Origin: Octopus vulgaris
Taxonomy: Eukaryota
NCBI GenBank assembly: GCA_951406725.2
Contig: OX597816.1
Coordinates: 496,001 to 560,000, forward strand
Reading direction: 5' to 3'
Length of the DNA: 64,000 nucleotides
Position numbers and translations under genes: made by a program. Numbering within the stretch: position 1 is the first letter of the stretch; every line of letters begins with the position of its first letter. The notes beneath the pieces are model-generated. The model had not been told where the DNA came from. It did no database searches and was given only the letters and a program-made list of their open reading frames with translations. Shown in pieces: positions 2,749 to 49,091 of this stretch.

Positions 2749-3992
2749 ATAAAAAACAGCAATCAACGAAACAGTTAAAGGTTTATCTCGTTATTTGCAG
2801 ATAAGTATTGTTGTTTTCCCGTAGTTTCATTGCAGCTGTTAGCTAATTGTCTCATTAAGTTAGTAACTTTATAAATGTCAATATTAAAAAAAAAAAAGTG
2901 GGGGTTGAATGACCAACCAAAATATATTGTAAATGTTCCGTATTATCCAAGTGCACATTTGGTCAGCTTCCAAACCTTGAAACAAACTAACCGCCCCTAA
3001 TGGTCAAAATAACGACGGAATTTCGGAATAGTATTACTATTACATGGGGTATGACAAGGGCAAGTATTAAGGATCAAAAAGTTTTTTGAATTGAACATTT
3101 TTGAAGGCGGAAAATATTTTCATAATCGTAATTTCCGTTGTAAGAAAAAGAAGAAAAAGAAATGCCTCCTAATTCCTAGCCCTTTTCCTTCCCTATGAAT
3201 TAATGTTGGCTATTCCGAAACTCCAAAGATTAAGGAAAGGTTGAACGAAATCAGGAAGTTGATACTCTATAGCCCCAGGTCAGCCCTGATGAAGCAGACC
3301 TACAATCAAATGCATTCGAACCGTCAGCACCGTGGAGTACTTTTTTTTTTTCTAAGCATGGTGTACCAAAGAATATATTAGCCTATGACAACTCTGATTT
3401 TTTAAGATAGCTGAAGGTATCATAAGGGAGCTTTGGTAACTATTTCAAGCAGCTCGATTCACCACGTATGTCTGCGCCTCATCTCTTTAATAAACAATAT
3501 TATTTTATCTCGATTTGTTATGTTTTAAAAAATTGAGGTTACTTTAAATTTTATTTTACTTTGTTGTTTGATGCGGTTAAATTACTTGTACTTTAAATGT
3601 AATGTTTTAAAATTTTATTTTAATATCAATACATATTTGTGAAACATCTTTATTTTAAAGAAGAAAATTGGTTCATTTCAAAGCTTTTATTTATATTTTA
3701 AAATTTTAAAAAATAAGTTTTAACAAATATATTTTCAGTTTAAAATCTAAACTTAAATGTTTAAGTGTTTACCATTGTAATATTGTTTGTATTTTGATCA
3801 TGAAAAACCCTGTCTTGAAACTAAATGAATGAATTCATATTTAATTTCCTTTCAAGAAATACGCATATTTCTGAAAATAATTTTGGGATTGGAAACAGGA
3901 GTGAGCCAGAAAAATAATGTATGTTTTTGTGGAATAAGATACTTAAAAGGTGAAAGGGGTGAGAAAAAAAGGTTCCATAAAATCTATCTTAC

Positions 3993-17920: not shown

Positions 17921-20900
17921 CATCATCATCATCATCGTTTAGCGTCCGCTTTCCATGCTGGCATGGGTTGGACGGCGCAACTGGGGTCTCGGAAGTCAGA
18001 AGGCTGCACCAGGCCCAGTCTGATCTGGCAATGTTTCTACGGCCGGATGCCCTTCCTAACGCCAACCACTCCATGATTGTAGTGGGTGCTTTTTATGTGA
18101 CAGATGAGGCTGGCAAATGACCACGGTCGGATGGTGCTTTTTACGTGCCACCGGCACGGAGGCCAGGCGGGGCTGGCAACGGCCACGATTGGATGGTGCT
18201 TTTTACGTGCCACCGGCAGGGAAGCCAGTCGGGGCAGCACTGGCAATGGCCACGTTCGGATGGTTCTCTTATGTGCCACCGGCAATGGTATTACAGCTAC
18301 AATTTCCATTGATGTTGATCAATTTAGCTTTTGATTTCACTTGCCTCAACAGGTCTTCACAAGTAGAGTTTTGTGTCCCAAGAAGGAACGGTATGCATAG
18401 GTGGACTGAGGTCATGGGTTATGGTCTCACTTGTCCTGCCGGGTCTTCTCACACACAGCATACTTCCAAAGGTCTCGGTCTCTAGTGATTTCCTCGGTGA
18501 GACCTAAAGTTTGAAGGTCGTGCTTCAGCACCTCATCCCAGGTTTTCCTAGGTCTACCTCTTCCACAGGTTCCCTCAACCGCTAGGGTGTGGCACTTTTT
18601 CACACAACTATCTTCATCCATTCTCGCCACATGACCATACCAGTGCAAACGTCTCTCTTGCACACCACAACTGATGCTTCTTAGGCCCAACTTCTCTCTC
18701 AAGGTACTTACACTCTGTCGAGTATGAACACTGACATTACACATCCATCGGAGTATACTGGCTTCATTTCTTGCGAGCTTACACATATCCTCAGCAGTCA
18801 CAGCCCATGTTTCACTGCCATGTAGCATGGCTGTTCGTACACATGCATCATACAGTCTGCCTTTTACTCTGAGCAAGAGGCCTTTTGTCACCAGCAGGGG
18901 TAAGAGCTCTCTGAACTTTGCCCAGGCTATTCTTACTCTAGCAGTTACACTTTCAACACACCAGCTCCCGCTACTGACTTGGTCACCTAGGTAATGGAAG
19001 CTATCAACAATTTCTAGTTTTTCTCCCTGGAACATGGTAGACGTTGGTCTCTGCACATTTTCAGTGTTAATTGCTCCTGAGCATCTGCCACATACAAAAA
19101 CGATTTCCTAGTTAGCCTTCCCTTGGCATTGCTGCACCTCTTATGTGTCCATAGCTTACACTTGGTGCATCTGATAAAGTTTGTACCTACGCTTTTTCTA
19201 CAGATCGAGCAAGGCCATCTACCTGAAGGCATTTGTGACTTGTCTACCTTGCTACTTTGGTTTTAGCTAGGTTGACTCTAAGGCCCTTCGATTCTAATCC
19301 TTACTTCCACACCTGAAACTTCTCCTCCAGTTCTGATAGTGACTCAGCAATTAGAGCAAGGTCATCAGCATAGAGAAGCTCCCAGGGGCATCATGTCTTG
19401 AATTCCTTCATTATTGCCTGGAGCACTATGATAAATAGGAGGAGGCTGAGGACTGAACCTTGGTGGACCCCTACCTCTACCCGAAATTCTTCACTGTACT
19501 CGTTGCCAACCCTCACCTTACTAGCAGCATCCCTGTACATGGCTTGCATAGCTCTCACTAACCATTCATCTATCCCTAGTTTCCTCATTGACCACCAGAT
19601 AAGGTTACTGGGGGACCCTGTCGAAGGCTTTCTCCATGTCAATGAAAGCCAGGTACAGAGGCTTATCTTTGGCTAGATATTTTTCCTGCAGCTGTCTTTC
19701 CAGGAATATAGCATCAGTGGTACTTTTCCTTGGCACGAACCCAAACTGCATCTCATCTAAACTAACTCTCTCTCTAATTAGTTGGGCTATGACACTCTCC
19801 ATAACCTGCATTACCTGATCCAACAGCTTGATACCTCTGTAATTATTTGTATCTAGGGCATCACCTTTACCTTTGTAGCAGTTGACTATTATGCTGCTAC
19901 ACCAGTCATTGGGAATGACTCCTTCGTGTATCACCTGGTTAACTATACGGGTGACAAGGCTATAGCCGACACTGCCAGATATTTTGAGCATCTCTGCAGT
20001 GATTCCTGATGGGCCTGGGGCTTTCCCTGTCTTCATACTTCTAATTGCCTTAACTACCAAGGAACTGTCAACTTGGATAGCTGGTCCCTCTGTTGGGTCG
20101 ACATTCGGCAGACTCTCTTTATCCCATTCATTTTCTTTATTCAGCAACCTTTCATAGTGGCATCTCCAAACCTCTCTCTTTGCATCCTCATTTAGCGCAA
20201 GTGAACCATCATCCATGCGAACACATTTCTCTCCTACCACATCACGATTCTCTCTCACACACTGTCTTGCAACGCGATATACCTCAAGTCTTTGGTCCTC
20301 ACGGTGCAGAACATTGGCAATTTTTTTCTTATCTGCTTCCCCTCTGGCTAGATAGACCTGTCTCCTAGCTTCTCTTTTGGCAGTCTGATACAATTCCCTG
20401 CTACCCCCATTCTTCCAGTGCTTCCAAGTCTGTCTCTTTTCTCTAATAGCCCTGTCTACAACACTGTTCCACCACCACGTTATTTTAGGTCGAGAGGGGA
20501 CTTGGCACCAGCCACAGATCTGGTCAGTGACTTTCAGCAGGTTGTCCCTTAGAATCCTCCAGTTGTCTTCTACCCCATGTGAAGCTATATCCCCTTCTAC
20601 TTCGTCAAAGGTTTCAAGTAATATGTCCCTAAATCTCTGTCCAATTGCAGGATCTTTAAGCTTCCAGATCCTTCTTCTCCATGTTGGTCATCTTCTGGTC
20701 GTCCTCTTAGTCCTGATCCTAAAGTCACTAACTACCAGTCTATGTTGTGGGGTACATTCTTCGCCTGGGAAGGTTTTGGCATTTATAAGCAGCCATCTTT
20801 CCTTTTTCCTGGCAAGGATGTAGTTAATTTGGCTGGTATGTCGACCCGATCGGTAGGTGACTAGGTGGCTGGTAGGTTTCCTGAAGTTAGTGTTGCAAAC

Positions 20901-21320
20901 CATAAGATCATTTGCATCGCAGAACTCCAGCAGCCTGGTTCCCTCCTCATTGCGGGAACCATAACCATAGCCTCCATGTACGCCATGGAAGACCCAGCAT
21001 GTCGTCCAACATGCCCATTGAAGTCACCAGCCACAAAGAGAAGGTCTCTGTCGTTCGTCAACGAGGTAGTCTGCAGTAGGGCGTGATAGAATCGGTCTTT
21101 CTGTCCATCGGGTAGCCCTGGCTGAGGGGCATAGGCCAATATATCATCATCATCATCGTCTGGTTGCTAATCCATGACGAAGCACTAATCTAATTTTAAG
21201 TATTCTGTCACATACTCTGATTACCTCAATTACCTTATCTACCCATTTTTCAGCGAGAAGTATACCCACACCTCCAACCCCGTCAGTGTTCCCTGCTCAG
21301 ATAGTCTTGTACCTGTGTTG
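17921..21320 (-). mobile_element. RTE-clade LINE (GAT-tailed family), 5'-truncated within the APE domain, frameshifted
   Basis: APE motifs (AYAPQ, AGDFNGHVG, QHRLV); RT motifs (GKAPGPSG, NYRGIKL, DMEKAFD, GVHQGS, LYADD, FHYLG); PHD-type insert; 3'UTR unit array; (GAT)n tail at 17921. Confidence 0.95.
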
Positions 21321-23387: not shown

Positions 23388-26300
23388 CAATATTCTAAAG
23401 TTGGACCTACTATTCCTTATCCTAAAGCTGCTTCAGACAATTAGGAAGGGTTCCCGACTCGTTTCACCGTCTGCTTTCAGTCTTGGATTGTGATTCGGTT
23501 CAGCCCAAACTCTCTTAGTTTTTGTCTGCTGTTGCCTACTCCTACAAGGATTGCAGCTGTTTTTGTTCCTGCTTTAACTCAGATTTGTCCTGGAGCCCAT
23601 AGAAGATTGTTTTTGGCAACCATCTATCATGTCAGCTACCTACATATCGAAACTGAGATCTGCGAGAAGGGCTCGCTCTGCTGACCCTTTTTTGGAGAAT
23701 TCAGTTGGTGAGGTGATCGGTGATATCAGGCTTTCACATGGGGGCCCTGAACTCAGGACTTCTCATCAGGATGATGGTCCTACCAACAGTCATCTCAACG
23801 AGCAGTTGCTGTTGCTCAAACAAGAGGTAGAGCACCTAAAGTCTGTTGTTGCTCATTTACTGAATAAACAGTCTCCTATTGACGCAGAGCCACCCTTGAT
23901 TTCTTCCCTGAAGACGTCCAAACCGAAGGGAACAAAATCGAAGCGGCCAAGGAAGGCGAAGGAACCGGCGGTCGTTTCCGCACATGATCGTTCCTGTTCG
24001 GATTCTTCCTCATCTGTCTTTTCGGTCCCGGAGGTTCCCCAATCTAATTTGAGGAGCGTAGACTCAAACCCACCTGAAGACCGTTGTTCTCCCAAAAAGA
24101 AGAAACGTAGTCAAAACTCCAGTGGGGCGGATTTAGCTACGAAACCTGATCACGATAAAATCTGTTTGGATTCTCCCTCACTTGTCCTTCCCATTAATGC
24201 CATTGCTCAACCAATTCTGAACGATCTTGATGTGTGTTCATCTGGGGAGTGGTGCTCCTCCAAACCGAAGAAGAGGCAGTGCAGTTCCAAACCAGGCGGG
24301 AAAGTTATGACCACTAAACCCATTCCAATCGACCCCAAAGGCCTACATAAGTCTGATGGCTATGAAACCACCCTTTCAAAATCATCCAACGAAGAATCGA
24401 ATGCTGCAGCTCATAGTAGAGAACAGAAAGACCATTTTGCCCACTCAAGATCAGCAATCATTTATGGTAAAGCTGAATCCACCTGTGATACAGGCATAAA
24501 CCGCCTAAAAGAAGACATAAATTTTGCTTACGTTTTAGTTGGAGAATTGTTCTCTGTCAATGAAAATGTCAGTATCCATAAGGTCGCTCAGCTAGGAAGA
24601 TTCCAAGCGAACTCAACCTCAGACACTAGACCACACCCAATAAGAGTAATCTTTTCTTCCGATCAAGAGGATTCAACCTTTCTGAACAGAGCTCAGATGC
24701 ATGCCTGGGAGGACCCCAATATGGGTTTTCGTGAGGAATACTCACTGTGAGAGAGAATTCGCCGAAGAAACCTAATATCCGAACTGAAGATGAGAAAACA
24801 GATGGGAGAGAAGGGTTTACACATCCAAGATGGACAAATAATCAAGTCCTACCTCTGGTCGCATGCTGTAGTGCTGACAGGGAAAGTGAATTGAGGGCGA
24901 ATCAAAGTAAAGTAGATACCCCCGTCAACGATGCTATCTCTGATACCCCTTATTCTGCTTGTTCCCCAATTCCCGCCCCTCAAACTTCACATCTCAGCAT
25001 CGTCTATACCAACTCGTGCTCCTTATTTCCAAAGTTCAGCGAACTATTTACACTGGCTATGCGTGATTCCCATGATGTGATAGCTATCACCGAGACTTGG
25101 CTGACTCCAGCAGTAAAGGACTCGGAAATCTACCTACAGGGCTACGCCCTCTCCAGATGTGACAGAGAAAAAAAGCGAGGTGGAGGTGTTGCTGTGTATG
25201 TTAAATCTGATCTCAAACTGTCCAGCGGTATTCTACCCACTAATGCTCAACCTACAACAAAATTCGATGCCGTCTATTGCAAGCTGAGCCTATCCGAGTT
25301 TTGCCTGCCCGTGTTAGCTGTCTACAGGCCGCCTCTTGCCGACCCCCAGGACGATGCTCATTTACTCCAAGCGATAAGATTCGTTTCAGCTTCTCATGAC
25401 TGTTTGATATTAGGAGACTTCAACACTCCCACGATCGATTGGCCCGCATCAATTTGTACATCATCTTCCTGGTTCAGCCAGGCCCTTCTTGACGTGGCTG
25501 AAGATTGTTTTCTATCGCAACATGTTGAATATCCGACAAGGCATCGGTCTGGGAAGCAGCCATCTATGCTGGATCTGGTATTCTACCGCTATCCAGTGTC
25601 AGACGTATCTGTGTCAGACGTATCTGTGTGCGCCCCTCTTGCCAAGAGTGATCATGCGGTCCTGAAGTTCATCATGCACACAACTTTTTCTACGCCCATG
25701 ACTACTTCGCTGCCACATAGAGTCTTCTCTGCAATTAATCTTGAAATTCTAACCGAGGCTTCTGCACTTCTGGACTGGCGATCCCTGATGATGTTGTCCT
25801 CAGTTGACGAACTATGGTCGTCCCTCAAAGCATATGTAATCTGGTTGACTGACCAAGCAGTTCCCGTTGGGCTTCCCAAGAAGAAGAAACACAAGCCCTG
25901 GGTGACAAAGAAGGTTAAACGAGAACTTCGACTCAGAGATATTGCTTGGACTGAATTCAAAAATCTGGATTCAACTGCAGCTTTTGAGGTGTACAAAACT
26001 CAACGAGACCGAGCCGTGAAAATTGAAAAGGAAGAACGCTTCAGTTATGAATACAAAATCGCGGCAAACACCAGTAGCAATCCCAAAACCTTCTTTGCCC
26101 ATGTCCAACGGAATTCCCGCTTGAACAACCAAATTGCAACGTTGGTAGACTCAACAGGTGTATCGATTGAGGACCCTTATCACAGAGTCAATTATATGCC
26201 GAGGCTTTTTCAACTATTTTCAAACAAGATGATGGTCGTGAACCCCCTCCATTTGATAGATCGGTACCTCCGATGCTTCGATTGGTCATCATGCGGGACG

Positions 26301-27835
26301 AAGTCAAACATGTTATTCAAGGCCTCGATGTCAACAAGGGTCACAGCCCTGACGGCATACACCCACGGGTTATCAAAGCGTTGGCTCCGGTCATCTGTGA
26401 TCCCTTAACACGTCTATTCAATATGTCATTGGCGACGGGTGTTATACCTGCGGACTGGAGAACAGCGATAATCTGCCCAATCTTCAAGAAAGGGAGCCAC
26501 GAAGACCCACTTAACTACCGACCGGTTTCCCTTACATCAATAATCAGCAAGATGTTCGAAACCATCCTTAAGAAAAGTATGATGCTCCACCTCCAAAACA
26601 CAGCCTCTATCTCTGATTCCCAACACGGCTTCGTGCCGAAGAGATCATGCTTGACCAACTTACTGGTAATGGAAGAATTGGTGACGTGCATCCTCGATGA
26701 TAGTGATGCTGTTGACATCGTTTTATTGGACTTTGCCAAAGCTTTTGACTCGGTAAACCACCGCCTATTACTTGTCAAGCTTCAAGCATATAGTTTCCAT
26801 CCGGATATTGTACGATGGGTTGGTGCCTTCCTCTCAGATCGCTCCTTCCAAGTCCAAGTTAATGGTTCACGGTCCGACGTTTCCAGTGCAAGCAGTGGCG
26901 TGCCTCAAGGTTCAGTGCTTGGGCCCTTATTATTCTTAGTCTTCATAAATGACTTGCCCGACGACCTCATGCAACACACCCTTCTATTTGCCGATGATGT
27001 CAAACTGGTCGCTCCTCACGGTGATATAGAGGATCTTCGTCGATGCCTCCACCAAATTTGGAGATGGTCTAATGAATGGGACCTGTGTCTAAACGTGTCA
27101 AAGTGCTGTCATCTGCCTGTTGGCTCTTCTCCTGCAACTCAACCTGATTTCGAGCCGGGTCGTCTGCTCCTGGAGAGGACCGACCAGGTAAAGGACCTGG
27201 GTATCTTGGTGGATTCCTCCTTTTCGCCTTCGCTCCAGTGCGTCCATGCTGCCAACAAAGCACACGGAGTTCTGTTCTTGATTCGACGGTCATTCGGAAT
27301 GCTCACAGCAGCCATATTCCTACCGCTCTATGTCACACTGGTGAGACCCATATTGGAGTACGGGATTCAAGCCTCTTCTCCTTAACTCCTCAAAGACATA
27401 CATCATCTCGAAAGAGTCCAGAAGCTGGCTACCTGCATGGTTCTTGGTCTCAAGCATTTGTCTTATGAAGAAAGGCTGAAGACACTCGACCTTTATTCTC
27501 TAGAAAAACAATGACGCTCACAACATCATAAGTGGAAAGTGTAAACTCTCGAAAGAGCTGTTCTTCACTTCTGCTCCAGAGCATTGGCTGCGGGGTCACT
27601 CCGAAAAGCTCTATCTGCGATGATTTCATCTCAATCGAAGGAGAGGGGCTTACTCCGTCCGGGTTGCGGATCCGTGGAATAAGCTGTGGAATAAGCCGAC
27701 GACCGCTCGGTTCAAAGTCTCCCTTGACCAGAAATGGCCTGAACTCTTTACATGAACACCACCCTGTACATAACTCCATGTCCCCCTACATGGCCTTGCT
27801 TTTTGCTTTTTGAGCCAAAAAAACTAACTAACTAA
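23388..27835 (+). mobile_element. Near full-length CR1-clade LINE: 5'UTR, ORF1 (23629-~24894, one frameshift), ORF2 APE-RT (~24800-27773, frameshift/stops), (CTAA)n tail
   Basis: ORF1 with SAIIYGKAES..LGRF..RPHPIRVIF and, in a shifted frame, ELKMRKQMGEKGLHIQDGQII. APE motifs ITETWL, GGGVAVY, GDFN, SDH; RT motifs NYRPVSL, DFAKAFDSV, GVPQGS, FADD. 3' hairpin CCATGT/ACATGG. Possible CATAT TSD (23383-87, 27836-40). Confidence 0.95.
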
Positions 27836-32329: not shown

Positions 32330-34900
32330 AAAAATATATACATACAAACCATCAACATGTTATTGAAAGGGCAGCTGCTGAACAAGAATCTTTTTTGTGC
32401 ATGGCACAAAAGATTGTACAGCAGCTAACCTGGCTCCATCAAGCTCAAACTCACAGATGGGACTATCCACAATACACAAGACCGCCACAGCAAATAGATC
32501 CAAGGTGGACACTGCCGGCAACAGTATACACCTCACCTCGATGCTCATCAGAGGACTGCTAACACTCAGTAACAGGACAAAAATCCCTTTCTTGAGAGAC
32601 CTTGTTGCATGCAATCAAGCCTTATGCATAGCACTTACGGAAACACACCTGAAACCGGACATAGCGGATGCGGAAGTACACATACCACAGTATGTTGTAC
32701 TACGGACCGACAGAAAAGAAAGGTGTTATGGTGGAGCTGCTATGTACATCCGCAAGGACCTCACACTCCAGGTCCTTTTGTCATACTCAAATTCGGTGTG
32801 TGACACATTAATTGTACATATAAGGCAACTCAGTGTAGTTATATGTGCTACATATCGCCCTCCAGATGCTCCAAGCCATGTGGGCAAGTTTGAAGACTGC
32901 CTTATAAAAATAGAAGAAGTTCTAGTCACATTAGAACAACACATAAGTGTGCTTCTTATGGGAGACTTCAATCTGCCCAATGTCAGATGGCCTGAGGGCC
33001 TTTCTCTCCCAGGAATGACACAATGCGAACGAGGACAAGCGAGATCCCTCCTGAACCTCATCAACACTTTGTACATGGAGCAAATAATACTCCAACCAAC
33101 CAGGGCAGGTAACATACTGGATCTCTGCTTCACAAATAATATGGATCTCATCCATAATGTGAAAGTGACACTGACACTACTCTCGGATCACAACATGGTA
33201 GAGTTGACCATGTACGGACCAAAGGAAAGCATGAACATGCAGTCTACAAGAAACTCTCAGAATCTTTCCAGCTTGAACTTCCATAAGGCAAACTGGAAAC
33301 AAATTGAGAAAGAGATCCTCAAACAAAACTGGCCTGAATGTCTCTCCTCGCCAGACATCGACATGAAACTTCAACAATTCATGTCTGTAATGCAAGCCAT
33401 ATGCTACAAATGTGTCCCAGAGAGAAAGGCCACTGTACACAAGAACAAAATCCCTAGAGAGAGGAAAATTCTTATGAGATGGCGTACAAAAGTTTCAAAT
33501 CGCCTAAACAAACAAATTGAAAGCAGTGAAAAGTCCTGCCTGAAAATAAAACTGTTGGAAATCGAAAAATGTCTGCAACTCTCCCATGAAAAAGAAAGAG
33601 CAGACAAAGAAGCCTGGGCTATAGACAACATAAAATCTAACCCCAGAGCTTTCTACAAGTTTGCCAAAGAAACAGCTACAGTGCACTGTAGGATAGGGCC
33701 ACTCCTTGAAAAAGACGGTTCACTCACAGGAAATCCAATGAGGATAAGTGAAATACTAAATGAGCAATTCAAAAGTATTTTCACTCCACCCCTAGGGCAT
33801 TTTCAAGTCAGCAATCCAACTGACTTCTTTACCACTGCAGATATAAAATCAGAGGCAACGATGATTGATTACATCAATATAAAGGAAGACGATGTAATAA
33901 AGGCTATAGATGAAATGAACCCAAACTCAGCTACTGGCCCCGATGGATTCCCAGCAATCCTTCTAAAAGTATGTAAGAGAGTCCTAGCAAGACCACTGCA
34001 GTTCCTCTTTCAGAGCTTCCTTGCAACTGGCAAACTTCCAAGAAAACTGAAGGAAGATAAAATATGCCCTATTTATAAAGGAAGTAGCAGAGTGGAGGTC
34101 AAGAACTACAGACCTATCTCTCTGACCTTACACATCAGCAAGGTCATGGAACGAATAGTCAGAAGGAAACTAATTGCCTTTCTTGAAGAAAATAACTTGC
34201 TGCCTGACACCCAACATGGTTTCCGACCAGGAAGGAGCTGCTTAACTCAGCTCCTACAACCCTATGACTGGGTGCTGAAACAACTGCTCAACCACTCAAA
34301 TGTGGAAGTGATATATCTCGACTTTGCAAAGGCCTTTGATAAAGTCGATCATGGAATGATATGTCACAAACTGCGTGATCTTGGCATAGTTGGAAAATTG
34401 GGAGAATGGCTTCATGACTTTCTGAAGGATAGAAGTCAGGTGGTAGTAGCCAATGGGGTCACCTCCATTAACACGCAAATAGTGAGCGGTGTTCTGCAGG
34501 GCACTGTTTTGGGACCACTACTGTTCATAATGGCCCTCTCGGACATGCCCTCAGCCACGCAGAGAGCCACGATCACAAGTTATGCAGATGATACAAAAGT
34601 TTCACAGGTAATACAGAACCCCGAAGACACTATGCATCTGCAATGTGAGCTGGACAAAATATACAAGTGGGCTGAAAAGAATAGCATGCAGTTCAATGCT
34701 GAAAAGTTTCAAGCTTTATGCTATCAGCATGCAAAACTAAATGCAATACCCAATAAATATACTGGACCTGTAGGGATTGCAATCCCAGAGGCACAATCAG
34801 TGCGAGACCTGGGTATTTACATGAGTAATGATGCAACCTTTCATGTGCATGTTGCTAAATTGGCAATGAAATGTAGGCAGCTGACCGGATGGATTCTTAG
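32330..34900 (+). mobile_element. CR1-clade LINE (second family): long open APE-RT frame, 3' end replaced after GWILR
   Basis: ORF 32397-34991 with ALTETHL, YRPPD, GDFNLP, SDH, NYRPISL, DFAKAFDKVDH, YADD, DLGI; related to 9023-9796 and 56530-58685. Confidence 0.95.
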
Positions 34901-36085: not shown

Positions 36086-38570
36086 AGGCTTGGAGGGACT
36101 GGAAGAACGGAGGTAGCAGAGATTTGTATCAGACTGCCAGAAGAGAAACTAGGAGACATGTTTATTTAGCCAGAGGGGAAGCAGATAATAAAAGATTTGC
36201 CAATGTTCTGCACCGTGAGGACCAAAGACTTGAGGTATTTCGTGTTGCAAGACAGTGTGTGAGAGAGAATCGTGATGTTGTAGGAGAGAAATGTGTTTGC
36301 ATGGATGATGGTTCACTTGCACTAAATGAGGATGCAAAGAGAGAGATTTGGAGATGCCCCTATGAAAGGTTGCTGAATAAAGAAAATGAATGGGATAAAG
36401 AGAGTCTGCCGAATGTCGACCCAACAGAGGGACCAGCTATCCGAGTTGACAGTTCCTTGGTAGTTAAGGCAATTAGAAGCATGAAGACAGGGAAAGCCTC
36501 AGGCCCATCAGGAATTACTGCAGAGATGCTCAAAATATCTGGCAGTGTCGGCTATAGCCTAGTCACCCATATAGTTAACCAGGTGATACACGAAGGAGTC
36601 ATTCCCAATGACTGGTGTAGCAGCATAATAGTCAACTGCTACAAAGGTAAAGGTGACACCCTAGATACAAATAATTACAGAGGTATCAAGCTGTTGGATC
36701 AGGTAAAGAAGGTTACGGAGAGGGTCATAGCCCAATTGATTAGGGAGAGAGTCGACTTGGACGAGATGCAGTTTGGTTTCGTGTCAGGGAAAAGCACCAC
36801 TGATGCCATATTTCTGGTAAGACAGCTGCAGGAGAAATACCTAGCCAAAGATAAACCTCTGTACCTGGCTTTCATTGACATGGAGAAAGCCTTTGACAGG
36901 GTCCCCCGATCCCTTATCTGGTGGTCAATGAGGAAACTAGGGATAGATGAATGGTTAGTGAGAGCTGTGCGAACCATGTACAGGGACGCTGTTAGTAAGT
37001 TGAGGGTTGGCAACAAGTATAGTGAAGAATACCGGGTAGAGGTTGGGGTCCACTAAGGTTCAGTCCTCAGCCTCCTCCTATTTATCATAGTCCTGCAGGC
37101 AATAACGAAGGAATTCAAGACAGGATTCTCCTGGGAGCTCCTATATGCTGATGACCTTGCTCTAATTGCTGAGTCACTATCAGAACTGGAGGAGAAGTTT
37201 CAGGTGTGGAAGCAAGGATTAGAATCGAAGGGCCTTAGAGTCAACCTAGCTAAAACCAAAGTCCTAATAAGTAGGAAGGTAGACAAATCACAAATGCCTT
37301 CAGGTAGATGGCCCTGCTCGATCTGTAGAAAAGGCGTAGGTAGAAACTCTATAAGATGCACCAAGTGTAAGCTATGGACACATAAGAGGTGCAGCAATAT
37401 CAAAGGAAGGCTAACTAGGAAGATAGTTTTTGTATGTGGCAGATGCTCAGGAGCAATAAACACTGAAAATGTGCAGAGACCATCTTCCGCCACATCCCAG
37501 GGAGAAAAACTAGAAGTAGTTGATAGCTTCCGTTACCTAGGTGACCAAGTCAGTAGCGGGGGCGGGTGTGCTGAAAGTGTAACTGCTAGAGTAAGAATAG
37601 CCTGGGCAAAGTTCAGAGAGCTCTTACCTCTGCTGGTGACAAAAGGCCTCTCGCTCAGAGTAAAAGGCAGACTGTATGACGCATGTGTACGAACAGCCAT
37701 GCTACATGGCAGTGAAACATGGGCTGTGACTGCTGAGGATATGTGTAAGCTCGCAAGAAATGAAGCCAGTATACTCCAATGGATGTGTAATGTCAGTGTT
37801 CATACTCGACAGAGTGTAAATACCTTGAGAGAAAAGTTGGACCTAAGAAGCATCAGTTGTGGTGTGCAAGAGAGACGTTTGCGCTGGTATGGTCATGTGG
37901 CGAGAATGGATGAAGATAGTTGTATGAAAAAGTGTCACACCCTAGCAGTTGAGGGAACCTGTGGAAGAGGTAGACCCAGGAAAACCTGGGACGAGGTGGT
38001 GAAGCACAACTTTCGAACTTTAGGTCTCACCAAGGAAATGACTAGAGACTGAGACCTTTGGAAGTATGCTGTGCATGAGAAGACCCGGCAGGACAAGTGA
38101 GGCCATAACTCGTGGCTTCTACCTGGGATGTAGCCAGTCCACTTATGCATACCTTTCCCTCTAGGTACACAAAACTCTACTTGTGAAGATCTGTTGAGGC
38201 AAGTGAAAATCAAAATCAAAATCGATCAACATCATTGGAATTTGTAGCTGTGATACCAGTGCCGGTGGCACGTAAGAGAACCACCCGAACATGGCCATAG
38301 CCAGCCCCACCCTGACTGGCCTCCGTGCCGGTGGCACGTAAAAAGCACCGTCTGATCATGGCTGTTGCCAGCCTCATCTGGCCTCCGTGCCGGTGGCACA
38401 TAAAAAGCACCCACTACACTCACGGAGTGGTTGGCATTAGGAAGGGCATCCAGCTGTAGAAACACTGCCAGATCAGACAGGGCCTGGTGCAACTTTCTGG
38501 CTTCCCAGACCCCAGTTGAACCGTCCAACCCATGCTAGCATGGAAAGCGGACGTTAAACAATGATGATGA
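36086..38570 (+). mobile_element. RTE-clade LINE (GAT-tailed family), 5'-truncated; single frame to stop at 38100 with two nonsense changes (37054, 38050)
   Basis: ORFs 36124-37056 and 37204-38052 are in the same frame; RT motifs, PHD-type insert, GRGRPRKTW end, three 3'UTR units, (GAT)n tail. Confidence 0.95.
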
Positions 38571-46146: not shown

Positions 46147-46573
46147 GGATCTTTTCGGTTTGAACGGCAGTATTTTCTAGCGGTGTCATATGAAATTGTC
46201 ACCCATAATTATGACCCTAGTATCGATCTATTGCATTTCAATCTATTTTAGGGTTAAGGTTAGAGTTAGGGTTAGGGGTGGGGGAAGGGTATCGTTTTTT
46301 CTTCAGAAATGTAAATAAACCCAATCTGTTTCTTAAACGAGGGACATTTTCATACGGCACAGAATGTTTTCACCTCAATAGACATCATTGATTGGTTGAA
46401 ATTGCAGAAATTGAAGAAAAAAACAACAAATATCTTACAAACTATAGAATTTTCTCAATAAAGCCAAGAGAAAAAGACGTTTTATAAACACATTCTACCA
46501 GTATACGAAGTTTAAGAGTGTTTAGTTATGTGGAAATTATTTTTAAAAACTGCCGTTCAAACTGAAAAGATCC
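46147..46573. mobile_element. MITE with 25-bp TIRs starting GG, ~8-bp TSD and internal TTAGGG-like repeats (Merlin-like)
   Basis: GGATCTTTTCGGTTTGAACGGCAGT / ACTGCCGTTCAAACTGAAAAGATCC; TATCATT flanks both ends; TTAGGG variants at 46248-46277. Confidence 0.8.
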
Positions 46574-46580
46574 TATCATT

Positions 46581-48601
46581 GATTTTTTTTTTTATGGCAA
46601 TCCCTCAAGGTCGAGGATGATGGTCTTCGCACAAATTTACTGGTGAGTCCGTAGGTGACCGATAAGACCAGTTCTTGCTTGAAAAGATCAGACGCAGTGC
46701 GGACATCTAGTGCCAGAAAGGAGAGTCGCACGTGGTTGTTGTTGGCGCTCCTTCCATCGTCGTCTTTTCTCCTCCAGCTCTGCAGACCTTTTCGACTCGA
46801 AAGTCGCCGCTCCCTCATGGATGGTGGTTTTCCAGAGTGGTCTGTTTTTTGCCGTTTCCTCCCAGTTAGTGAAGTCGATGTCACACTTTTTGAGGTTCGT
46901 TTTCAGGGAGTCCTTGTAGCGTTTCTTCTGGCATCCTTTTGTACGCTTGCCGCCTTTGAGTTGAGAGTAGAAGATCTGTTTGGGAAGTCGTTCGTCAGTC
47001 ATTCTAACCACGTGGCCGCTCCATCTTAGTTGGCCTTTGATGACACAGGCTCGATGCTGGTCATTTTTGCTTCTTGTAGCACGCTGACGTTTGTTCTTCT
47101 GTCTTTCCAGCTGATGTTAAGGATCTTCCGAAGACAGCGTTAGTGAAATTTCTCGAGCGTTTTCAGGTGGTGACTATATGGGGTGCAGGTTTCGGATGCG
47201 TAAAGGAGGGTTGGAATAATGACTGCCCTGTACACCATAAGTTTGGTTTCGGTTCGGATGTCCCGATCAGCAAAAATTCTTGTTTGAAGCTTGCTGAAAG
47301 CTGTTCCTGCACACCTCAGACGGTGTTGGATTTCATCGCTGAGGTCTACCTTTGCTGACAGATGGCTCCCAAGGTAGCAGAAATGGTTCACATTTTCCAG
47401 TGGAATTCCTTCGAGTTGAATCGATGGCGGGTTGTCAACACGGGCATTGGGAGGAGGTTGGTAGAGTAAGTGAGTCTTCTTGATGTTGATGCTCAGTCCA
47501 AGTTTAGTATATGCATGATGAAAAGCATTTAGGATCTGTTGGAGGTGATCTTCTCTGTAAGCTGCTACACTGTTGTCGTCGGCATATTGGAACTCTAGCA
47601 AGCTTCGTGCCATTGTCTTTGACGTACTTTTGAGGCGAGTGAGGTTGAAAAGCTTGCCGTCCATTCTGTACGAGATCTCGATGCCAGGTGGAAGATCATC
47701 TTGTATGATGTGCAACACTGTCGCGATAAAGATGGTAAAGAGAGTTGGCGCTATCACGCAGCCTTGCTTCACTCCGGAGGTGACTTTAAAGGGCTCAGTA
47801 CTGCCTCCGTCGGTCTGGACTCTGGCGTGCATATTGTTGTGGAGGAGTTTGAGGATCCGGATGAACTTATCTGGGCATCCATACTGGGTGAGAATATCCC
47901 AGAGGAGCTCTCGCGAGACACAATCAAAGGCTTTGGATAGGTCGATAAAGGCCAAATAGAGCGGTTGGTGTTGCTCACGACATTTTTCTTGTAGCTGTCA
48001 CAGCGTGAAGATCATGTCGGTTGTGCTTCGTGATGGCCAAAAGCCGGTCTGCGTCTCAGGAAGGATCCTCTCTGACAGCGTTTTGAGGCGGTTGTTCAGG
48101 ATGCGTGCAAGAATCTTCCCAGCAGTTGCTAATAAGGAAATACCCCAGTAATTTCCACACTCAGAACGTTCGCCCTTTCGTTTGTAAATGGTAATGATGT
48201 TGGCATCCCTGAAGTCGGATGGTACAACTTCATTTGTCCAGATTTTGACCAAGAGTTGGTGGAGCTGATGTTGGTCTGCTAAAGTTCAACCCCTCCTCCA
48301 CGAGGTGCAGACTGGGCAACGCGAGCACAGCAAGCCAGCTGTGCTAGCGGCAAATGGGGCTCTGACAGTCATCAAGTCCTCAACGGTGGAACAGGCGGAT
48401 GAAGTTGCCTTAACAACTCAACAGCTGTGAAGGCGGACAAAGGCTGCAACAGACCATCGACTCCAATCGTCTCGGTTTACCTTGCCATTGGGTCAAGTTG
48501 GTGATCTGTCAAGTTTACGTGTGCTTTACTGGGCGTACGACCTCAAGCACACGTTAAAAAATTTCACGTACAGGCGTCTTCGCCACCACTCTTCTTATTC
48601 T
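46581..48601 (-). mobile_element. BovB-like RTE insertion: RT/3' body on minus (46581-48272) plus inverted 5'UTR on plus (48273-48601)
   Basis: RT motifs DLSKAFD, GVKQGCVIAP, QYADD, YLGS; C-terminal CPHC..H..H; A-tail; 11-bp TSD ATCCTATCATT (46570-46580, 48602-48612) encloses both parts. Confidence 0.92.
48273..48366 (+). ncRNA. HDV-like self-cleaving ribozyme (partly decayed) at the RTE 5' end
   Basis: P1 GGUCUGC/GCAGACU; L3 UCCACGA; P3 UCC/GGU (one mismatch); P1.1 CC/GG followed by GCAAC; P4 AGCACAGC/GCUGUGCU; J4/2 GCAAA with candidate catalytic C at 48351; P2 CCCC/GGGG. Confidence 0.75.
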
Positions 48602-48696
48602 ATCCTATCATTAGAATGTCTAGATATGCAACAATATACATGAGAATATATACATAAAGCAAAACATACAAACCTGCACACACACATACATACAGG

Positions 48697-49091
48697 CATC
48701 ATCATCATGGCTCGGCTTCGCGAACGAAGATCGTCCACGTCGCGTGCATGCACGCTCATGACTGACAAGTCCGATATGGGAAAGGCAGGTCCGTGAGCAG
48801 TGTCCACAGACGAAGGTAACATCCGGTGTGGTGTCAGAGGCGGCTCGCACCTTCCTCCTGCGTCTCTTCTTTGTTCCTCAAACTTGCTGTCTGCGTTGAA
48901 GATCGTGTGGCGCCAGACATCACGGTCCGCAGCCAGGTCTGACCAGCATTGGTGGTCAATATGACATACTGTTAGAGGCTTCTTCAGGCAGTCTTTGTAG
49001 CGCTTCCACGGAGCTCCTCTCACTCGGTGACCGGTGGAGAGTTCGCCAAACAGGGCAATCTTTGGAAGGCGATGGTTCTCCATTCTGGAGA
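48697..49091 (-). mobile_element. 3' fragment of a second BovB-like RTE subfamily, (ATG)n tail
   Basis: RMENHRLPKIALFGEL..RGAPWKRYKD..CGHCSRTCLSHIGLVSH. Confidence 0.9.

Follow-up and report, generated by a model that had tools for sequence, protein, structure and literature searches.

The 64,000 nucleotide stretch of the Octopus vulgaris genome analysed here (GenBank assembly GCA_951406725.2; contig OX597816.1, positions 496001 to 560000 of the forward strand), referred to as the window, was found to contain a dead copy of an RTE-like LINE with a 5′ inversion inside one TSD. The inversion and an accompanying 1.86 kb deletion were probably (an estimated three chances in four) produced by twin priming on a single RNA, the 5′ end of which would have been set by self-cleavage of a predicted HDV-like ribozyme immediately before its first G (G+1). 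Taken alone, the locus unites two phenomena that are both known; more notable is the frequency of 5′ inversion in the family to which this copy belongs.

An 11 bp TSD (ATCCTATCATT) is present at coordinates 46570–46580 of the window and as an exact repeat at 48602–48612, and no third copy was found in the 64 kb. Positions in the element (ref) are those of L033, a natural collinear copy of ~3.9 kb, and the insert was mapped onto it in two parts, a minus-strand part running from ref 2191 to the 3′ end and a plus-strand part covering ref 1 to 329/333. The minus-strand body (46594–48274; 96% identity to L033), interpreted as the first-strand product, includes the RT, the C-terminal region and a 43 nt 3′ UTR, and a 3′ tail of A11 and two bases lies at 46581–46593 on the same strand. 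An RVT_1 match was obtained at 47140–47997 (E value 4e-22), and the list of open reading frames showed that the frame of the body is interrupted by stops and a frameshift. The plus-strand arm (48273–48601; 95% identity to L033), interpreted as the cDNA of the second primer, is the element 5′ UTR (ref 1–329); it is tail-less and directly adjoins the TSD. Ref 334–2190 are missing, and this gap of 1.86 kb includes the APE domain (about ref 656–1334).

The two parts overlap at the inversion junction in a 2 nt microhomology (48273–48274), where G+1 and G+2 of the ribozyme coincide with body positions 2191–2192. A 3 nt sequence match between the TSD end (48603–48605) and ref 331–333 is the likely annealing site of the second primer. 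These microhomologies, 3 nt at the 5′ junction and 2 nt at the inversion junction, are short enough to be due to chance in one copy. One TSD around a minus-strand RT/3′ body and a plus-strand segment, with the APE region absent, is the twin-priming architecture described in the original prediction, and each of these features was recovered when both parts were mapped to L033. The window tail (46583–46593) is the only A-run among 100 copies, most others having (CAT)n or (AGT)n. The pyrimidine-rich spot at ref 329–333 in the 5′ UTR is the site of three independent breakpoints (window, L050 and L047).

The insertion target was the right end of a MITE (46147–46573; 427 bp with 29 nt TIRs), which is hAT-like in its 8 bp TSD. 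A first look at the genome gave 3739 candidate copies of the MITE, and 11 of 11 other copies are flanked by 8 bp duplications, exact or nearly so. As the RTE TSD spans, and so duplicates, the final 4 nt of the MITE TIR together with 7 nt of the MITE TSD, the RTE was inserted later than the MITE, the order of events that had been proposed earlier.

With the arm as query, 30 matches were obtained in the genome (227 contigs, 2.8 Gb). The same arm and the same RT body are joined in six near-complete collinear copies of ~3.9 kb (including L031, L033, L034, L036 and L037), hence arm and body are parts of one element, and the segment is linked to the same RT family elsewhere, as the original prediction had assumed. 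APE (PF03372) and RT (PF00078) are encoded in one 639 aa frame in L036, and the ORF maps of six copies agree. The 3′ UTR is 43 nt, tails are (CAT)n or (AGT)n, and the TSDs of the family are mostly 7–16 nt. The RTE clade is described in PMC1291365 as having a single ORF and a 3′ UTR that is very short and terminates in short repeats, and RTE TSD lengths are cited in PMC4245944 as peaking at 10–12 bp. The single APE-RT ORF, the 43 nt 3′ UTR and the microsatellite tails therefore fit the RTE description and, with the TSD length, support the earlier assignment of the element as RTE-like.

RTE-2_OV, reported from Octopus vulgaris as a brain-expressed element with a single ORF encoding APE, RT and a C2H2 finger and with a microsatellite tail (as described in PMC9115989), resembles the element studied here in these structural features, and is in the same genome, where four of four tested primers match L315–L319 exactly. 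Besides these primer matches, a protein match of 83% identity labelled Octopus vulgaris points to an octopus host. The two are not the same, as these primers are off by 5–7 bases in the element and its RT is 44% identical to that of RTE-2_OV, versus 26–32% pairwise identity to the other LINE fragments in the window. Copies of RTE-2_OV (L315–L320) are full-length, 95–99% alike and have sharp 5′ ends, several with an intact 1123 aa frame; no ribozyme match was found at these 5′ ends with Rfam or our own model, and a long hairpin near the 5′ tip was seen by eye. Fragments of other LINE families in the window are located at 18442–21142 (−), 26300–26947 (+), 33891–34526 (+) and 36283–38085 (+), and share 28–38% protein identity with the element.

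The arm begins with a predicted HDV-like ribozyme fold (48273–48365, plus strand), identified from Rfam model RF00094, a pair table and covariation. The RF00094 match (48271–48363) scored 43.6 bits (E value 3e-4), below the gathering cut-off of 50. In the predicted fold, P1 (48273–48279/48307–48313) has 7/7 pairs with a G-U first pair, L3 (48297–48303) is of the YYC type, P1.1 (48298–48299/48314–48315) has 2/2 pairs, and P4 (48320–48349) has 8/8 pairs in its inner part. C48351, which corresponds to the J4/2 C in the RF00094 alignment, is the predicted catalytic cytidine (C75 equivalent). All of these elements lie where they had first been placed. For P2 and P3, the formation of which had been put forward for checking, the outcome was divided: P2 (48290–48293/48356–48359) forms with 4 bp and a 3 bp extension (48286–48288/48363–48365), but P3 (48294–48296/48304–48306) has only two of three canonical pairs, its first pair being U·U. 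An alternative P2 register (48283–48287/48357–48361) can form and is 4 kcal/mol worse, and the covariation sits in the 4 bp register.

The cytidine corresponding to C48351 is conserved in 18 of 19 copies, and the two C-G pairs of P1.1 are kept in 17 and 18 of them. Among 19 non-duplicate copies, each of the four P2 pairs is intact in 15–18 and U·U occupies the first position of P3 in 18. The window copy differs from the family in J1/2, L3 and J4/2, and its stems are unaffected. The suggestion that a P3 mismatch and a short P2 may make this particular copy inactive was thus correct as to the features and incorrect as to decay of the copy, since both features are family-wide and the departures of the window copy lie outside the stems. 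By eye, the two subfamilies are also distinguished by a pair in P4, G-C in one and A-U in the other.

Further support for the helices, which had been fixed before this relative was found, came from L276, a metagenome relative with 49% protein identity that has the same layout 546 nt ahead of the protein match, including the 4 bp P2. In the alignment with eight close copies, both sides have changed in 6 of 22 pairs, two in P1 and one each in P2, the P2 extension, P3 and P4, all six compensatory pairs coming from this single homologue. None of 500 shuffles equalled six, and slid controls gave at most two. Covariation across P1–P4, suggested as a check at the outset, was thus seen against this one homologue. 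Of 80 metagenome relatives, 59 have 400 nt or more of upstream sequence; a descriptor matched five of these, but none of the 59 when the reverse strand was scanned, and in an Rfam scan of 19 metagenome relatives L276 was the sole match. HDV-like folds lie 550–810 nt upstream of related ORFs in the metagenome contigs L222, L227 and L276, with weaker ones in L208 and L261, and in L222 and L227 J1/2 is long, at ~100 nt. An older related family in the octopus genome is also headed by an HDV-like core, decayed, in which A-U closes P3 (L161, coordinates 3444–3526 on the plus strand; L162, near 3290–3330). No relatives of the element were found in viral and prokaryote collections, and a genome-wide RF00094 search returned no match but was run without a positive control and is uninformative.

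HDV-like ribozymes are known to head R2, R4/Dong, RTE, Baggins and L1Tc elements (Ruminski 2011; Webb 2009; both after the summaries in PMC6765202 and PMC3774820). The fold modelled at the 5′ end of the octopus family is a new member of this known kind and, if it cleaves, would act as a 5′ processor. It shares with the known non-LTR examples the nested double pseudoknot, the G-U first pair and the J4/2 C, and, as in those, the first base of copies is the P1 G, preceded by unrelated flanking sequence. It differs in the family-wide U·U in P3, in a P2 of 4 bp with a short extension, which is shorter than the 5 bp P2 given for the R2 ribozyme in PMC3774820, in an extra base in J4/2 and in its cephalopod host. 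The first P3 pair is A-U in L276 and in L161, a decayed older relative in the same genome, so the U·U is likely to be derived and activity may therefore be reduced. As a P3 mismatch has been recorded in an R2 ribozyme (PMC3774820), the U·U lowers the likelihood of activity and does not exclude it.

The position of the 5′ end was examined in other copies. As G48273–G48274 also match body positions 2191–2192, the window junction is ambiguous over +1 to +3. Among inversions with an arm reaching the first 10 nt, 7/7 independent cases end at +1 (window and L042), +2 (L085, the L040 group, L043 and L048) or +3 (L039); between +4 and +144, the inversions examined contain no arm end. These seven came mostly from the search with the 5′ arm; 4 of the 41 inversions in the sample selected by 3′ end reach the tip, the window included. 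Of 13 collinear 5′-complete copies, eight begin at G+1 and five at +3 to +9, and no two of the 13 have an upstream flank in common. In two collinear copies, L034 and L036, the TSD is joined without microhomology and the 5′ ends are base-exact.

From the 5′ ends of the collinear copies and the tip-reaching inversions it follows that the template RNA ends at G+1. This supports the proposal that the second cDNA ran to the RNA tip, and the full-length copies, checked as had been suggested, start mainly at the same base. The further claim, of a record of cleavage exact to the nucleotide at this locus, was not upheld, as the 2 nt microhomology blurs the window junction and L034 and L036 are a cleaner record of the 5′ end.

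It is likely, by analogy with known HDV-like cleavage chemistry (described in PMC4908430 and PMC3774820), that the RNA end at G+1 arises by cleavage. Genomic junctions would be identical if twin priming had occurred on an RNA for which G+1 is the transcription start of an internal promoter, the ribozyme being slow or vestigial with its U·U in P3. The replacement, in 18 of 19 copies, of the A-U seen in two relatives and the RF00094 score below gathering would fit this explanation, which is nevertheless rather unlikely. The fold has been maintained with compensatory changes, RTEs are without promoters of their own according to the review PMC6765202, and the jewel wasp (Nv) R2 ribozyme has a P3 mismatch, with Nv templates cleaved up to 32% (as given in PMC3774820). 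An extra, cap-type G ahead of G+1 was looked for in the eight exact-start copies and found in none, which is weak evidence against a transcription start, as the RT may not copy a cap. Cleavage before G+1 is hence the preferred source of the RNA end.

The frequency of inversion in the family was determined using a 25 nt 3′-end pattern, which gave 191 exact matches. All 100 matches listed were examined as a first sample; from the other 91, all on different chromosomes from these, 62 were drawn in the order listed as a second. An opposite-strand arm was present in 31 copies of the first sample, and once one atypical case and three duplicates had been set aside 28/97 were inverted (27/96 without the window); the second sample gave 13/62. 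Combined, the two samples contain 41 inversions among 159 independent copies, or 40 among 158 without the window (25%, 95% confidence interval 19–33%), a count in which arms shorter than ~25 nt are missed and only copies with the exact 25-mer are represented. L099, with an atypical arm, was scored as not inverted, as were L365 and L381, in which the opposite-strand matches share 67–74% identity, belong to other families and do not adjoin the body. Duplicates L083, L112 and L149 were dropped, and L049 and L158 were counted as duplicates within the L040 group; L040, L049 and L158 (C29) are one inverted copy, with a 2.7 kb arm to +2, that occurs three times with common flanks.

An exact TSD of at least 7 nt was found in 32 of the 41 inversions, several of them in microsatellites, and was looked for and not found in the other nine. 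The junction overlaps by at least 1 nt in 34/41, the two breakpoints are at most 35 nt apart in 26/41, and gaps of more than 800 nt, as in the window, occur in 10/41. Arms that stop internally had a median length of 134 nt in the first sample. A preferential capture of a tethered 5′ end was considered and rejected, as priming in the first 350 nt among large-gap inversions was seen in 3/6 of the first sample and 0/4 of the second, or 2/9 overall without the window. A first-strand stop hotspot at ref 3600–3619 (15/97 copies in the first sample versus 2/62 in the second) was not replicated.

In the preferred reading, a read-through transcript would be cleaved immediately 5′ to the P1 G, and the element endonuclease would nick the MITE end with an 11 nt stagger. 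One 3′-OH would prime at the 3′ tail and copy to ref 2191, and the other would anneal by ~3 nt at ref 331–333 and copy until the RNA end is reached, after which the two cDNAs would be joined via the 2 nt microhomology. The same route would give rise to the inversions in about a quarter of the family, the ribozyme G being reached whenever the second primer lands near enough to the RNA tip.

As gaps of more than 800 nt are atypical (10/41), the window copy could also be explained by two RNAs, with another RNA of the family, primed from the top strand, serving as template for the inverted arm, which would account for the 1.86 kb gap. Twin priming between snRNA and L1 RNAs has been proposed (in a passage of PMC4476161). 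However, arm and body are of the same subfamily in 7/7 testable copies, divided between three with a long P4 and four with a short P4, which makes a second RNA improbable, though subfamilies active at different times would match too. A normal full-length insertion altered later by recombination (inversion and deletion), or two copies lying head to head, is very improbable. Internal deletions without inversion do occur (L035, L041, L045, L046, L047 and L127), but the tail-less arm adjoins the TSD, one TSD surrounds both parts, and the same layout is seen in 41 independent copies with mostly adjacent breakpoints. Twin priming on one RNA is the more probable route for the window copy. The ribozyme tip with the middle deleted is present, non-inverted, in these six copies and in L156, which consists only of ref 1–245, a tail and a TSD, and these non-inverted copies are reminiscent of the R2 SIDEs in PMC3774820.

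Twin priming was described for human L1 by Ostertag and Kazazian in 2001 (as described in PMC2912911, PMC12016303 and PMC4245944), and the proportion of L1 insertions inverted is given as ~30% of young insertions in PMC2912911 and as 18–22% in PMC12016303. The octopus inversions resemble those of human L1 in that a single TSD is adjoined by an arm without a tail, microhomologies are short, most breakpoints are adjacent and the rate is similar. They differ in that the element is a single-ORF, RTE-like LINE of an invertebrate with a microsatellite tail, and the RNA tip is a predicted ribozyme cut and not a cap. In the relevant passages of PMC4245944, inversions are recorded only for L1 in human cells and one Nimb-2 insert and are tied to overhangs of 10–20 bp, and in those of PMC6007223, PMC4476161 and PMC6895275 twin priming is mentioned only for L1.

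Both HDV-like ribozymes heading RTEs and the reading of cleavage from genomic junctions are already published. Cleavage by R2 ribozymes was inferred from genomic junctions (PMC3774820), and in the RTE Perere-3 of Schistosoma mansoni, which carries twister variants, TSDs beside the cut site were taken as evidence of cleavage in vivo (as reported in PMC8501958). The octopus case is like Perere-3 in that cleavage is deduced from TSD junctions, and unlike it in that the Perere-3 ribozyme has a twister and not an HDV fold and its activity was assayed (same source). The word "inversion" is absent from that paper, and "ribozyme" and "inversion" are absent from PMC9115989 and PMC13282606. No report of twin priming in an RTE or of the present ribozyme in octopus was found in the literature searched; Ruminski 2011, Webb 2009, Ichiyanagi and Okada 2008 or supplements may already describe RTE inversions or a U·U-closed P3. 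As far as checked, the newer finding is frequent inversion of the twin-priming type in an invertebrate RTE, a variant of a known mechanism.

The 25% rate in the family bears on the open question of what decides 5′ inversion in LINEs. In a minimal RTE with TSDs of 7–16 bp and this rate, the possible factors are separated, and overhang length becomes a better candidate than ORF1p, poly(A) or the host. In the broader interpretation, for and against which we consider the odds to be even, twin priming would not be a quirk of L1 in mammals, ORF1p, poly(A), the cap and a mammalian host would all be dispensable, a stagger of 10–15 nt may suffice, inversions reaching the tip would map the cut, and a ribozyme with a U·U-closed P3 would work in vivo. 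The overhang idea predicts that inversion rate rises with TSD length across LINE families, and the octopus family offers a naturally occurring HDV-like fold with U·U in P3. Repeat annotation may split inverted copies into two elements.

An older, second RTE-like family, the copies of which are 85–93% alike, is represented in the window by a 3′ fragment at 48700–49088 (−) and elsewhere by L189 and L191. An adjoining inverted arm was seen in at least 2 of 30 loci of this family in a screen of up to 1.5 kb upstream, one of them with a visible TSD.
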